Positions 7,119 through 24,794 are shown, counted from the first letter of the stretch. The stretch is DNA of 32,000 nt from Deinococcus radiodurans R1 = ATCC 13939 = DSM 20539 (GCF_000008565.1 NC_001263.1:511213-543212), one strand, 5' to 3'. The notes: generated from the letters alone by a model not told the origin. Translations and numbers: made by a program.

Positions 7119-7195
7119 GCACCCTTAGCTCAGCTGGATAGAGCAACCGCCTTCTAAGCGGTCGGTCGTAGGTTCGAGTCCTACAGGGTGCACCA
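7119..7195 (+). tRNA. tRNA-Arg (anticodon TCT) with encoded CCA
   Basis: Hand-folded cloverleaf. Acceptor stem GCACCCT/AGGGTGC. D arm GCTC-AGCTGGATA-GAGC. Anticodon arm ACCGC-CTTCTAA-GCGGT. Variable loop CGGTC. T arm GTAGG-TTCGAGT-CCTAC. Discriminator A followed by CCA. Confidence 0.92.
7150..7195 (+). repeat. attL: 46-bp direct repeat (3' half of tRNA-Arg), partner at 24749-24794
   Basis: CCTTCTAAGCGGTCGGTCGTAGGTTC(G/A)AGTCCTACAGGGTGCACCA occurs at both sites. The only mismatch is 7176 G versus 24775 A. Confidence 0.9.
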
Positions 7196-7197
7196 AC

Positions 7198-7229
7198 AAA
7201 AACCCCGCACTCGACGGGGTTTTACTTTT
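7198..7229 (+). terminator. intrinsic terminator after tRNA-Arg, probably bidirectional (also closes the integrase gene)
   Basis: Stem CCCCG (7203-7207) / CGGGG (7215-7219) with a 7-nt loop. It has an A-run upstream and TTTTACTTTT downstream, so it reads as hairpin plus U-tract on both strands. Confidence 0.65.
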
Positions 7230-7264
7230 GGCCCAGGGCCTACCGTTTGTGACGCTGAGGGGCA

Positions 7265-7290
7265 GGTGTCAAACGTCTGTCAAACGTCAG
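7265..7290 (+). promoter_or_regulatory. candidate integrase arm-type site pair (tandem GTCAAACG), attL side
   Basis: GGTGTCAAACGTCTGTCAAACGTCAG. A near-identical copy, GGTGTCAAACGGTTGTCAAACGTA, lies at 24597-24620 in the same orientation. Each copy is roughly 70-130 bp inside its att repeat. Confidence 0.6.
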
Positions 7291-8621
7291 GCCCTCGCCC
7301 GCTTTGACCCTGGGGCAGCGCTGGGGGGCAGCTCGCCCGCCTCACCCTCAGCGCTGCCCGCCTCAGCCTGGGCGAGCCGTGCCCGCACCGTTACCCGCTT
7401 ACGCCCCTGGGGTTCAGGCTCAGGGGCCGGGGCCGCCGCTGGGGTCAGCGGGTCATAGGTCAGCGAGGCCCGCTCACTTTCGTACACGTGCCGGTACGTG
7501 TCCCGCGTGAAACTGGGGGCCGCGTGCCCCAGCTCAGCCGAGAGCACCTCGACGGGCACCCCCGCCGCCGCCTGAACGCTCGCCCAGGTGTGCCGCAGTT
7601 TGTGAGGAGTCAGCACCGGCACGCCCACCGCCTGACAGAGCCGCGCCATAGGCCGCCGCAAATTGTCAGGCCGGTACGGGGTGCCCGCCCGCGTCACGAA
7701 CACATACCCGGTGCTCTGGTACTCGCGCCCGTTATGCCTTAGCCGCGCCCCCGCCTCGCGCTCAGCCTGGGCGCGGGCGTCGAGCAGCAACCGGGCCGCG
7801 TCACCGGTCACGGTCAGCGAGCGGCGGCCCCGTTCGGTTTTCGGGGTGTCCTCATAGACTCGCCCGCCGCTGACTGACCGCGTGCGCTCGATGTGTACCA
7901 CCGCCGCGAGCGTGCCCCCCTCAGCGCTGCCCCGCATGGTCACGTCTGCCCAGGTCAGCCCCAGGGCCTCGCCTGGGCGTAGACCGGTCGCCAGCATGAA
8001 GGCCAGAGGCCAGCCCCAGCGGTCAGCGCGGGCCGCCGCGTAAAACCGGGCCGCCTCATCTGGGGTGAACGCCTTGACCCGCGCGGCCCCGCGCTCGACA
8101 TACACGGGGCGAGCACGGGCGGCGGGGTTCACCGTCACCACCCCGTCAGTCAGGCCCAGCAAATAGGCCGCGTTCAGCAGGTTGTGAGTTTGCCGCCGCA
8201 CACTGTCACCCTGCCCCGCCTCGCGCTGGGCGTCATAAAACGCCCTGAGCCGCTGGGGGGTCACGCCCTGGGCCTTGAGCTGCCCCAGGCTGGGGGAGAT
8301 GTTGCGCCGCAGTAAGGCGCGGTAATTCTCGACGGTGCGCCCCTTGAGGCTGGGGGCGCGGTGCTCGATGTACGCGCTTACAAGCTGCTCGACGGTCACG
8401 CGCTCGCGGGGGGGCAGGGTGTCACGCTCAGCGGCCCTCAGCGCCTCGCGCACCGCCTCGCGTGCCGCCGTCATGTTGCGGGCCGTGCCGGTCACGTGCC
8501 GCCGCTCGCCCGCTGGGGTGGTGGTCATGACCCGCCAGCGCACCCGCCCCGCTGGGGTTTTCGTATAGCTGCCCTCGCCCTGCCCGCGCTTGACCCGCCG
8601 CCCCTCTGCCCCGTCTGCCAT
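7287..8621 (-). CDS. int: tyrosine recombinase / phage-type integrase
   Basis: 444 aa. SAM-like N-domain (VEQLVSAYIEHRAPSLKGRTVENYRALLR). Catalytic residues in context: ATGLRPGEALGLTWADV (Arg), HKLRHTWAS (HxxR) and LGHAAPSFTRDTYRHV (His and Tyr). Adjacent to tRNA/attL. Confidence 0.93.
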   Translation of the reverse strand: MADGAEGRRVKRGQGEGSYTKTPAGRVRWRVMTTTPAGERRHVTGTARNMTAAREAVREALRAAERDTLPPRERVTVEQLVSAYIEHRAPSLKGRTVENYRALLRRNISPSLGQLKAQGVTPQRLRAFYDAQREAGQGDSVRRQTHNLLNAAYLLGLTDGVVTVNPAARARPVYVERGAARVKAFTPDEAARFYAAARADRWGWPLAFMLATGLRPGEALGLTWADVTMRGSAEGGTLAAVVHIERTRSVSGGRVYEDTPKTERGRRSLTVTGDAARLLLDARAQAEREAGARLRHNGREYQSTGYVFVTRAGTPYRPDNLRRPMARLCQAVGVPVLTPHKLRHTWASVQAAAGVPVEVLSAELGHAAPSFTRDTYRHVYESERASLTYDPLTPAAAPAPEPEPQGRKRVTVRARLAQAEAGSAEGEAGELPPSAAPGSKRARA

Positions 8622-8690
8622 GCCCTCAGCGTACCCCCGCCCCCTGAGCCGTAACAGAACCGGGCAGCGCTGGGGGGCGCCCGGTTCCTG

Positions 8691-8956
8691 GGGGAGTAGG
8701 GGTAGGGTTCTAGGGGGTTTTAGGGGGGTAAATCCCTATAAGCATTTTTTAGACTATCTATCTATCTATATTTGATGTGCCAGAGGGCCTCTAGCGCTGC
8801 TACGGGGTAAGAGTAAAGTACGTATACACTCTAGGGCTCTCCAAAACCCCTAAAACCTCTGGGCTACTCCGAACACCGCCCAGCACGGGAAAAACAGTAG
8901 AGGTTATGTGCTGGGCTACTCTGGGCGCCTACCCCCTAAAACCTCTGGGCTACTCC
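8691..8956. repeat. iteron-like cluster A flanking the most AT-rich tract of the element
   Basis: Perfect 24-bp direct repeat CCCCTAAAACCTCTGGGCTACTCC at 8847-8870 and 8933-8956. An extra CTGGGCTACTC at 8911-8921. An inverted degenerate copy at 8691-8728 (GGGGAGTAGGGGTAGGGTTCTAGGGGGTTTTAGGGGGG). An AT-rich segment at 8729-8830 includes the (TATC)n tract AGACTATCTATCTATCTATATTTGATG. Confidence 0.75.
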
Positions 8957-23150: not shown

Positions 23151-23264
23151 GGGGCGCCTTAACACATACGAAAATGCACGCGGCCCCGCTCGCGGTGCTC
23201 TCCGGTAGACTCTGGGCAAGCCCGCCAGCCTGCCCCCGCCCCGTGCCTGCCATATGGGGCGGTT

Positions 23265-23561
23265 TCATTTTTGCCCCTGAGCCGTCGAGCGCTCGGCCCG
23301 CCACGCGTCGAGCTGGGCGCGGTGAATGCGGTACACGGGCCGTGCGGGGGTGCCGTAGTTTTCAGCGAGCAGGCGGCCCGCTTTAATTTCGTTTCTGATG
23401 AGGTCTTGCCCGACGCGCAACAGGGCCGCCGTCTCTACCACGTCGAGCACGGGCAGGGTTGCGAGCTGCTCAGGGGTCAGGGTGGTACGTTTGCGCCCGT
23501 TCGTCACTCTGGGCGAGCGGGTCAGGTTTTCAGCATGTGTGCTGGGGTTAGGGGTGGTCAT
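23265..23561 (-). CDS. excisionase-family / MerR-like HTH DNA-binding protein (candidate Xis)
   Basis: 98 aa. LDVVETAALLRVGQDLIRNEIKAGRL...YRIHRAQLDAWR matches the HTH_17/excisionase pattern. GAGGG lies 8 nt before the ATG. It sits at the opposite end of the element from int. Confidence 0.7.
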   Translation of the reverse strand: MTTPNPSTHAENLTRSPRVTNGRKRTTLTPEQLATLPVLDVVETAALLRVGQDLIRNEIKAGRLLAENYGTPARPVYRIHRAQLDAWRAERSTAQGQK

Positions 23562-23717
23562 GTAAAGCCCTCGCGGTACACCCCAGCCGCGCCCCGCGTC
23601 GAGCGCAGGGGGCTAGGGGTAGAGCTGGGCGGGCCTGACTCGCCGCGTACCGTTTACGGCGTAGGGGTGTCAGGTTGCCCGGTGAGCGCTTCCCCGGTCA
23701 GGGGCAGCGCTGCCAGC

Positions 23718-24548
23718 TCAGGCGAGGGCAGGGGGCGCGAGGGGTGCGGCTGGGGGTATGGCCCGCGAGTAGAGCGGGCGAGGGGCGCGACGAACTGGGG
23801 GCCGCCGCTTAGGTTTACGGGGAGCCATGCGCCGCAGTACCCGTAGCAGCACGCGTACCGTTCGCCAGAATTGCCGCCGCTCGTTACGGTGCTCGCGCCC
23901 TTTGGGAAGTTGGAGAACGAACGAGTAGAGGGACGCCCTGAGTTGCGCTCCTAACGGTTCAAACCCATGCATGAGTTGCTTTACAACTGCCTGCGGGCCG
24001 CCTGGGAGATGCTTTGCAAGACTTAGAAGGATGTTGCCCCAGTGGTAGCCGTACTGGGCCGCTGTGGTTAGCTTTTCAGTCAGATAAGCGGGCTGAGGCG
24101 CGGCTATGTAAGTGCGGGGCAGCCCCAGACTCATTTTCTCTACCGGCGCTGCCCAGGCTGCAAACCCCGCGAGCTGCTCAGCCCCGTTTACCGGCTCCCC
24201 CCCCAGCGCTGCCCCCGCCTGGGCGTCAGGCTTAGCAGCGGGCCGCCCAGGGGCGAGCATGGCCCAGAGGCCCCAGCGGTACACCCCGGCCCCGCGCATG
24301 ACGGCACGGCGGTAGTGGCGAGCAGTCCAGGGGTCAGGGTGAACGCTCAGCGAACCGTCAGGGGTAACGTTGCCCAGGGTGGGTACGTCATGTGCCATAA
24401 GCTCAACCTCGACGCGGCGAGGTTCGCCCAGCCAACCGCCCGTGACGATTTGCACGGGCAGATAAACACAGCCGCCGTTAACCCTTATGACATACGCGCC
24501 CCAGACGTTTACACGTTTAGGGGTGGGCAGGGTCACGGGGGCGGACAT
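23718..24548 (-). CDS. hypothetical protein with a basic C-terminal tail
   Basis: 276 aa. First gene inside attR on the minus strand. The C-terminus reads RRMAPRKPKRRPPVRRAPRP. No family recognised. Confidence 0.55.
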   Translation of the reverse strand: MSAPVTLPTPKRVNVWGAYVIRVNGGCVYLPVQIVTGGWLGEPRRVEVELMAHDVPTLGNVTPDGSLSVHPDPWTARHYRRAVMRGAGVYRWGLWAMLAPGRPAAKPDAQAGAALGGEPVNGAEQLAGFAAWAAPVEKMSLGLPRTYIAAPQPAYLTEKLTTAAQYGYHWGNILLSLAKHLPGGPQAVVKQLMHGFEPLGAQLRASLYSFVLQLPKGREHRNERRQFWRTVRVLLRVLRRMAPRKPKRRPPVRRAPRPLYSRAIPPAAPLAPPALA

Positions 24549-24596
24549 ATCTCTATCTTACGCCCTGTTACGGCTGAGCATAAGTGAGGCGGCTAG

Positions 24597-24620
24597 GGTG
24601 TCAAACGGTTGTCAAACGTA
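24597..24620 (+). promoter_or_regulatory. candidate integrase/Xis arm-type site pair, attR side
   Basis: GGTGTCAAACGGTTGTCAAACGTA. It matches 7265-7288 at 22 of 24 positions and lies in the same orientation. Confidence 0.6.
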
Positions 24621-24748
24621 CTGGGCAGAATGACCGCCCCCCGTACCCCCTGGGGCGTAACGCCTGAGATACATTTTTACCGTCTGGGCGCGGCGCCTGC
24701 CCCTAAGCGCTCGACGGGGCACCCCTCGCCCGTTTTCCCGCTCATCCC

Positions 24749-24794
24749 CCTTCTAAGCGGTCGGTCGTAGGTTCAAGTCCTACAGGGTGCACCA
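24749..24794 (+). repeat. attR: displaced 3' fragment of tRNA-Arg (anticodon loop to CCA)
   Basis: 45 of 46 positions identical to 7150-7195. It has no 5' tRNA half upstream, so it is not a functional tRNA. Confidence 0.9.

Follow-up and report, generated by a model that had tools for sequence, protein, structure and literature searches.

The chromosome of Deinococcus radiodurans R1 (= ATCC 13939 = DSM 20539) carries a 17.6-kb element at a tRNA-Arg gene of chromosome 1, with an integrase, regulators and a large primase-helicase, and the question it raises is what kind of element this is and by what means it could spread. The element occupies positions 7150-24794 of the 32,000-nucleotide stretch analysed here (NC_001263.1:511213-543212), referred to as the window, from whose first letter all positions are counted. 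A preliminary description made from the sequence regarded it as a satellite-like island of the P4 or phage-inducible chromosomal island (PICI) type, with a non-conjugative integrative element as the alternative. The present analysis shows that it is a member of a Deinococcus-restricted family that, as far as found, has not previously been described; a literature search returned no earlier description of the element. We lean, with slightly better than even confidence, towards an intact integrative, self-replicating and transfer-dependent episome of this family, that is, an integrative plasmid or non-conjugative integrative element.

The boundaries of the element are marked by a direct repeat of 46 bp. 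ARAGORN found a single tRNA in the window, tRNA-Arg(TCT) at 7119-7195 on the plus strand (Rfam tRNA, 70.9 bits), and Rfam otherwise gave below-threshold matches only. This gene is the integration target and its 3' part forms attL. Direct-repeat search and sequence inspection placed the left copy of the repeat at the tRNA gene's 3' end (7150-7195) and a displaced copy of that end, the attR core, at 24749-24794; the two copies differ by a single mismatch (7176 G vs 24775 A), and the att repeats reported in the preliminary description are thus confirmed at both ends. The likeness continues to 80 nt at 84% and takes in the terminator hairpin that follows the tRNA. A similar hairpin lies 3' of both att copies (7196-7223 and 24795-24830), and therefore the element brings its own copy of the tRNA-Arg 3' end and terminator, presumably captured from a related genome. 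The GC content drops from approximately 0.70 within the element to 0.55-0.60 immediately beyond its right end.

Next to the left end lies a gene for a tyrosine integrase of 444 aa (7287-8621, minus strand; PF00589 E 9e-18, PF14659; phrog_1 E 1e-56), whose translation has the R...HxxR...Y motifs intact. Tandem pairs of TGTCAAACG are situated approximately 70-175 bp inward of each element end, with two tandem copies of TGTCAAACGTC at 7267-7288 (TRF, 100% match) and the partner copy GTGTCAAACGGTTGTCAAACGT, located by inspection, at 24599-24620. These pairs are candidate arm-type integrase sites, because a circle would place them around the att core within approximately 250 bp, which is the layout expected of arm sites. 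The expected partner of the integrase, described earlier as an Xis-like helix-turn-helix (HTH) protein, was recognised as an HTH_17 protein of the AlpA/Xis type at 23265-23561 (minus strand; PF12728, at 27.4 bits just above the cut-off of 27; also matched by phrog_66, 'excisionase and transcriptional regulator').

At approximately 70% GC, raw lists of open reading frames (ORFs) are useless (here, 168 ORFs of at least 60 aa), and ORFs were therefore chosen by comparing the GC content of third and second codon positions (GC3 and GC2). This gave 24 credible ORFs in the element; one more, at 17370-17684, is probably spurious. Pfam and PHROGs recognised five of the 24, namely the integrase, an XRE regulator, the HTH_17 protein, the PrimPol and DUF3987 replicase and, weakly, the zinc finger of g12, and left 19 unmatched at E <= 0.01. 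The earlier estimate of about 25 ORFs is corrected accordingly, and the observation that nearly all of them are unrecognisable stands.

Replication functions are gathered in an operon of nine genes on the minus strand (17782-23561), with the HTH_17 gene first and g17 last. Its replicase, g22 (891 aa, 19976-22651), comprises an archaeo-eukaryotic primase (AEP) PrimPol domain (residues 16-186) and, fused with it, a helicase-like DUF3987 domain (residues 410-790), and the assignments bear out the Prim-Pol/DUF3987 replicase recognised beforehand (PF09250 Prim-Pol, E 5e-18; PF13148 DUF3987, E 7e-77; also phrog_1156 and phrog_2373). The remainder of the operon includes g23, an ORFan of 218 aa which together with the HTH_17 gene covers 22648-23561, four small coupled ORFs, g18-g21 (18771-19979), the last of which has a conserved Cys-rich C-terminus, and g17 (330 aa, 17782-18774), an all-helical protein that is the hallmark of the family and whose gene invariably closes the replication operon. 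The integrase, primase and g17 proteins are each 100% identical to D. radiodurans AAF10092, AAF10112 and AAF10110, respectively. Several D. radiodurans assemblies annotate the primase in two pieces (336+462, 362+512 or 460+442 aa), which are either real frameshift variants or long-read indel errors.

The second large transcription unit runs in the opposite direction. A putative repressor of 138 aa with an XRE/Cro-CI-type HTH (10107-10523, minus strand; PF13560, PF01381 and PF13443, approximately 1e-5; PHROG repressor families) is translationally coupled to g02, a membrane-like ORF of 47 aa (9967-10110, minus strand) supported by the GC3 map and by a 47-aa ORF kept beside the XRE gene in the relatives L183 and L184. 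Divergent from the XRE gene are the ten coupled genes g04-g13 (10736-15289, plus strand; GC3 0.78-0.92, overlapping or abutting stops and starts), in agreement with the repressor-operon arrangement previously reported, and a promoter-like site directed towards them, TTGACA-18-AATATT, is present at 10536-10565 on the plus strand by consensus match only. These genes are ORFans: apart from the weakly matched CxxCxGxG zinc finger of g12, none has a Pfam, PHROG or PADLOC match. Among them are g08, a zinc-ribbon protein of 295 aa, and g09 (131 aa, 12868-13263), the most conserved protein of the family with 78-88% identity throughout. Within g05, a 33-nt tandem repeat (11289-11363; 2.3 copies, 95% match) codes for a repeated KTASTKTAPAR segment before a membrane-like helix. 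An Rfam match to RT-13 RNA inside this operon (11863-11926, minus strand; 34 bits vs a gathering score of 69) is probably due to chance. Two further conserved ORFans, g14 (123 aa) and g15 (285 aa, with an invariant CPxC...GCxxCLGLT motif), lie at 15747-17035 on the minus strand.

Non-coding DNA was put at about 2.5 kb in the preliminary description; its repeat-rich character is upheld, and its extent is corrected to approximately 3.1 kb (8622-9966, 10524-10735, 15290-15746, 17036-17781, 23562-23717 and 24549-24749). The largest of these regions (8622-9966, 1.3 kb) has a lower GC content and iteron-like repeats (CGCCCAGACGGTAAAAAC in four copies, and GCCCAGCACGGSGAAAAC), which make it a candidate replication origin, and a second region at 17036-17781 contains further iteron-like repeats, together with a terminator (17711-17731) that follows the replication operon. 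CGCCCAGACGGTAAAAAC and GCCCAGCACGGSGAAAAC form clusters between 8.9 and 9.8 kb and between 17.2 and 17.7 kb, solitary copies lie at 23.08 and 24.67 kb, and both occur far above chance (six matches vs 0.03 expected, and eight vs 0.09). The closest relative has repeat clusters at the same two places, so the two separated iteron clusters are a conserved feature.

Searches for the genes that would allow such an element to form particles or to transfer itself were negative. Pfam and PHROGs gave no terminase, portal, capsid, tail, holin or lysin match for any of the 24 ORFs, as the preliminary description had stated, and no homologue of Sid, Psu, Delta, TerS, Ppi, Cpm, capsid or connector proteins. 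By Pfam, the element contains no relaxase, coupling protein, VirB4-type ATPase, FtsK-like TraB or other translocase, while a six-frame Walker-A scan found no P-loop in any called gene beyond the replicase, and PADLOC, applied to the ten largest ORFans, recognised no defence protein. Profiles of six ORFan families (g08, g13, g14, g15, g17 and g25) likewise drew no match from PDB sequences. In addition, AlphaFold models of g17 (mean pLDDT 86) and g09 (mean pLDDT 81) were compared by Foldseek with the PDB and, for g09, with BFVD, and gave no significant match (best E 0.3, 0.09 and 0.015; TM-scores of 0.43 or less). The g17 model is predicted to be an all-helical bundle (best PDB E 0.3, TM 0.25) unlike Sid, Psu or scaffold proteins, and that of g09 a small beta-sandwich with a C-terminal helix and weak PH-like matches, not a jelly roll. 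A hidden structural module is thus rejected as far as these methods reach (Pfam, PHROGs, PADLOC, Walker-A, Foldseek and profiles), and remote homology, through PHROGs on all ORFs and the structure search of g09 and g17, did not reveal the complete module that would have spoken against a satellite-like element.

The element is intact. Sixteen genes compared with the relatives L001 and L183 had dN/dS values of 0.1-0.8 and not one stop codon (0.2-0.8 in the g04-g13 operon, which is kept in relatives), and the pattern of substitutions indicates that they are under purifying selection. A decayed remnant, which the preliminary description had named as a possible refutation, is rejected on the same grounds. 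A syntenic copy, approximately 78% identical at the nucleotide level and with a replicase 81% identical to g22, is present in Deinococcus sp. VB343, and a closer copy on a contig of ERR11642248 is likewise bounded by a tRNA-Arg-like att repeat; both ends of that contig (ERR11642248_142031) are simply the att repeat and are uninformative on circularity. Against the closer relative L183, dS ranges from 0 to 0.8 among neighbouring genes, and therefore the family is mosaic and recombining.

The search for relatives proposed in the preliminary description uncovered this family, with 71 homologues of g17 and 30 of g09, the majority of which are proteins from metagenome or read assemblies; all source-named ones are from Deinococcus (D. 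murrayi, D. frigens, D. arenicola, D. ruber, D. ficus, D. fonticola and further species). For g15, just 50 relatives were found among 1.84 billion representative proteins. Loci with a g17-like gene share an architecture in which an HTH_17-led replicase operon ends in that gene, and beyond it lie a small operon in divergent orientation, an XRE gene and, adjoining a tRNA, the integrase gene. The relatives adjoin tRNA-Thr, tRNA-Asn or tRNA-Lys genes, or tRNA-Arg-like sites; at least five different tRNA genes serve as targets in the family, and element size is approximately 10-19 kb. The integrase type differs between members, as does the replicase (fused or split PrimPol and DUF3987, RepB_primase-D5_N-DUF5906, AAA_25, or an unassigned protein of 1088 aa). 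The constant part is an ORFan core of g03, g04, g08, g09, g13-g15 and g17-g21; XRE proteins are 52-96% identical across the family, and among the plasmid-like cargo genes of relatives are those for PemK toxins, Fic proteins and a ParA-like ATPase.

The viral, phage and plasmid collections searched showed no trace of the family. Profiles of g09, g15 and g17 had no match in 2.9 million IMG/VR contigs, and tblastn with 15 concatenated core proteins and g09 found nothing in INPHARED (50,697 GenBank phage genomes) and no homologue among 72,556 PLSDB plasmids, so that a known plasmid or phage relative is rejected. The N-terminal domain of the primase matches many marine viral contigs at approximately 35% identity, which share that domain only, and none of the 19 genome matches of a primase scan was a Thermus locus.

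A free form of one relative was found among assembled sequences. The contig L184 (17,094 bp) has identical ends of 119 nt, which close it to a circle of 16,975 bp; its counterpart in another sample is 100% identical and circularly permuted, and a third sample has the same sequence. This circle encodes an XerC/D-like recombinase and a replicase unlike that of the window element, and a search of it for a tRNA-like attP found none. Just upstream of the recombinase gene (1396-1480 of L184), there are at least four GTGAAGCCTCAC repeats in direct and inverted orientation, likely a binding-site array. Cumulative G minus C climbs monotonically round the whole circle. In the window (7196-24750), G is in excess on the minus strand irrespective of gene orientation, and this holds for both operons, for intergenic DNA and for third codon positions. 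The pattern suggests replication in one direction or a single-stranded stage.

The closest studied analogue, judged by architecture, is ICETh2 of Thermus thermophilus HB27, an element of 11.3 kb and 13 ORFs at a tRNA-Val gene, with a 47-nt att repeat and genes for Int, Exc, Ppol and a helicase, the others being mostly hypothetical (PMC7693054). The window element is from the same phylum and resembles it in integration at a tRNA 3' end, an att repeat in the range of 45-50 nt (46 bp here), a tyrosine integrase with an excisionase-type protein, PrimPol and helicase functions and a majority of hypothetical ORFs, and neither element has virion genes or a conjugation apparatus of its own. They differ in that ICETh2 has separate Ppol and helicase genes, whereas the window element is larger (17.6 kb, 24 ORFs) and has a fused PrimPol-DUF3987 protein; PrimPol-helicase fusions occur in Meiothermus elements (PMC7693054). 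ICETh2 excises at a frequency of 1e-4 to 1e-5, which UV raises 5-7-fold, and it moves not by phage but by DNA donation encoded by ICETh1 (transjugation) together with competence of the recipient (PMC7693054). For ICETh2 excision, UV induction and transfer were demonstrated by experiment, whereas the window element is known from its sequence alone, and the parallel is to be read as one of architecture.

The element can probably excise and copy itself. The integrase and the HTH_17 protein, acting at the paired TGTCAAACG arm sites, would excise a circle, which would replicate by means of its own primase-helicase, probably unidirectionally and starting in the non-coding regions that bear the iterons; while the element is integrated, the XRE protein would silence the divergent operon. 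Spread would depend on outside machinery, because no packaging, virion or conjugation gene is recognisable, and could be through a helper phage (in which case the element would be a satellite), through host DNA donation and natural competence as for ICETh2, or through plain transformation; the evidence does not choose among the three. We know of no donor system like ICETh1/TdtA in Deinococcus.

Four points weigh against the episome as described. Excision, replication and transfer of the D. radiodurans copy are predictions drawn from its DNA sequence. The circular relative differs both in its integrase, which is XerC/D-like, and in its replicase, and therefore its circle is no proof for the D. 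radiodurans element. The family has no PLSDB homologue, and is therefore uncatalogued as a plasmid too. Finally, the approximately 19 ORFans, two of which were modelled structurally, could hide a packaging or hijacking function.

The strongest competing explanation is a true phage satellite in the manner of P4, PICIs or the related PICMIs, in which a helper phage would induce excision and replication and the 17.6-kb genome would be packaged in helper capsids, with conserved ORFans such as g17, g09 and g08 responsible for helper sensing, capsid redirection or packaging specificity. The architecture fits, with an integrase, a divergent repressor, an AlpA-headed primase-helicase operon, no virion genes and a family size of 10-19 kb. 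P4 shares with the element its tRNA integration, integrase and AlpA-type HTH, large primase-helicase and lack of virion genes, and it has two repeat regions, ori and crr, to which the two conserved iteron clusters may be compared. However, Pfam and PHROGs reveal neither a psu-delta-sid operon nor an epsilon gene in the window element, which at 17.6 kb also exceeds the median of 10 kb for P4-like satellites and has no known helper or cos site. The alpha protein of P4 joins a primase of the Toprim type to an SF3 helicase, whereas the window replicase is an AEP PrimPol with DUF3987, without Toprim or D5_N by Pfam, and would be a functional analogue only.

The core of a PICI consists of int, alpA, pri-rep, terS and a gene for capsid morphogenesis, five components in all. 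PICIs and PICMIs resemble the window element in their integrase, divergent regulators, alpA and pri-rep module and comparable size. The element differs in lacking terS and a capsid-morphogenesis gene, so that it has three of the five components ('Type C'). According to the SatelliteFinder study, at least four components are needed for a confident call, and 'Type C', being unreliable and possibly another kind of mobile element, is not accepted by its authors (PMC10085698). The capsid-forming variety, the cfPICI, was rejected, as capsid, portal, head-tail adaptor, connector, terL and terS genes were not found by Pfam or PHROGs and there is no additional Walker-A ORF.

A possible phage connection is offered by the tailed Meiothermus phages MMP7 and MMP17 (approximately 33 kb), which have the same type of replicase in an early module with an excisionase-type HTH (7351-9236 and 10962-11201 in MMP7; PrimPol domain 42% identical to that of g22), and the satellite explanation also gains from the Mu-like head genes of MMP7 and the Mu-like prophage RadMu in D. 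radiodurans (PMC1635311). However, the two phages carry full Mu-like head, contractile tail, terminase and lysis genes and have no other gene in common with the element. Further against a satellite, the homologues of satellite-defining genes sought above are missing, the g17 and g09 models do not match Sid, Psu, CpmB or any capsid fold (by comparison with the PDB, and BFVD for g09), and the profiles and core proteins drew a blank in IMG/VR and the 50,697 phage genomes. No cos- or pac-like DNA is shared with any phage, the sole DNA likeness being 180 bp within the primase gene. No helper is known, and the literature search found no paper on a Deinococcus phage and none on a Deinococcus satellite; the preliminary description had likewise known of no Deinococcus satellite, and the term is absent from the SatelliteFinder survey (PMC10085698). 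Given the lack of satellite-defining genes and of phage or IMG/VR matches, together with the free circular relative, the ParA-like, PemK and Fic cargo of other relatives and the precedent of ICETh2, we therefore prefer the episome and regard a satellite as unlikely. The P4/PICI claim is supported in part, in its architecture but not in hijacking or packaging genes or a known helper, and the non-conjugative integrative element offered as its alternative is at least as well supported.

One feature of the DNA bears on how the element might be moved. The 12-mer CAGCGCTGGGGG, extended to the 15-mer GGGCAGCGCTGGGGG, has 32 matches at one mismatch or fewer against 1.2 expected, and 31 of these fall within the element (7316-24211), with one in the 14.4 kb of flank. 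The word is thus approximately 25-fold over-represented, at about one site per 600 bp of element. It is also oriented, with 22 of the 31 element sites on the minus strand, including all eight in the plus-strand operon. For its palindromic core CAGCGCTG, the counts are 28 in the element and one in the flanks. In coding DNA, GGGCAGCGCTGGGGG is translated into GSAGG on the sense strand or PPSAA on the antisense strand, in linkers and at the C-termini of proteins. It also lies 8-9 nt 5' of three start codons. The word is enriched in relatives and absent from their flanks (24 sites in L001, at 9980-22404; 22 in L183; 13 in the circle L184), with about one third of sites conserved in position. In the more distant relative L182 (Deinococcus sp. 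HMF7604, 5000-19000), other words are enriched, namely GGGCCGCGCTGGG and CCTGCAGG, a palindrome of 8 bp (10 sites vs 0 in its flank), and L189 and L188 enrich CTTCGCCG and GGGCCAGC, so that every lineage seems to have private over-represented words. A further word, GCTCGACG, occurs 47 times in the element (7778-24716) vs four in the flanks and 3.6 expected under a third-order Markov model. It is probably a codon or dipeptide habit of the element and not a signal, since it shows no strand bias and most of its sites are explained by codon and dipeptide context, the usual frame being xxG CTC GAC Gxx (Leu-Asp) or its complement, Val-Glu (GTC GAG).

A dense, oriented and element-specific word such as GGGCAGCGCTGGGGG could serve as a polar signal in packaging or translocation, which would favour a satellite. 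A bolder and rather doubtful extension holds that the ORFan core g04-g21 is a new Deinococcus-specific machinery for transfer or helper exploitation, and GGGCAGCGCTGGGGG the polar DNA signal that this machinery recognises in packaging, translocation or uptake, or in shielding the DNA from a nuclease. If true, it would give the phylum its first satellite-like system or amount to a new mode of transfer.

Less probable still is the view that the element no longer moves, either as a remnant or as a domesticated island that persists for some benefit to the host, for example with its PrimPol as a barrier to incoming DNA. Such a role has a precedent in the Ppol of ICETh2, which restricts transformation and is dispensable for the replication of ICETh2 itself (PMC7693054), and the split annotation of the primase in some assemblies would agree with it. 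The element is also present in essentially all sampled D. radiodurans assemblies (219-235 contigs with the integrase, g17 and primase), but this ubiquity says little because most of these assemblies probably re-sequence one strain, R1. Against immobility, all 16 genes compared are intact and under purifying selection, the integrase-side regulators included, the att cores are one base apart and the integrase motifs are complete. Furthermore, the variety of tRNA targets and the mosaic dS relative to L183 indicate ongoing mobility and recombination.

Least probable is a provirus of a new non-tailed virus, or a particle- or vesicle-forming element, whose structural proteins would be the unrecognisable ORFans: these do form the conserved core around which replication and integration modules are exchanged, two small proteins (g02 and g05) are membrane-like, and the 17-kb circular relative is near the size of the Thermus sphaerolipoviruses P23-77 and IN93, but there is no P-loop ATPase besides the replicase, which to our knowledge the known membrane-containing icosahedral, filamentous and pleolipo-type viruses all encode, no PHROG match although that library should include Thermus viruses, no g09, g15 or g17 in IMG/VR, and a g09 model that suggests a beta-sandwich in place of a jelly roll. 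The pT26-2/pTN3 elements of Thermococcales offer a comparison of another kind, with free circles and tRNA-integrated copies, a conserved core of proteins without known function, an integrase, primase-helicase-type replication proteins and a host range of one clade. They differ in being archaeal and without detected homology to the window element, which lacks the large membrane and ATPase proteins of the pT26-2 core. A temperate tailed prophage was rejected, as the gene map fills the whole 17.6 kb with no terminase, portal, capsid, tail or lysis gene by Pfam or PHROGs, and so was a conjugative element (ICE, IME or AICE), for want of a relaxase or translocase by Pfam; an element mobilisable by an oriT alone may still fit.

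The surroundings of the element have features of their own. The last gene before attR, g25 (23718-24548, minus strand), is an ORFan of 276 aa with a promoter-like site at 24604-24577. The right flank (24830-32000, GC 0.55-0.65) contains unassigned ORFs and codes for a Ser/Thr kinase with a weak SnoaL-like match, a protein in which LRV repeats occur nine times and another with an OmpA domain. It may represent an island of greater age at this tRNA; the flank of the VB343 relative is different. In the left flank, a long plus-strand ORF at 55-2424 has an unusual GC content of 0.88 at first (GC1) and 0.64 at third codon positions and no Pfam match, and the true genes may lie on the opposite strand.

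Elements that integrate at tRNA genes and replicate without transfer genes of their own are a known class, and what is new here is a variant specific to Deinococcus. D. radiodurans R1 has been studied heavily, yet its 17.6-kb element has, as far as found, never been characterised. The family offers approximately 19 proteins without an assigned function in a tractable, naturally competent host, which allows direct tests of triggering by radiation or DNA damage, of spread without transfer genes and of the role of the oriented DNA word. Its replicon and integrase are possible tools for Deinococcus genetics, and if the element proved to be a true satellite, phage satellites would be extended to a new phylum.

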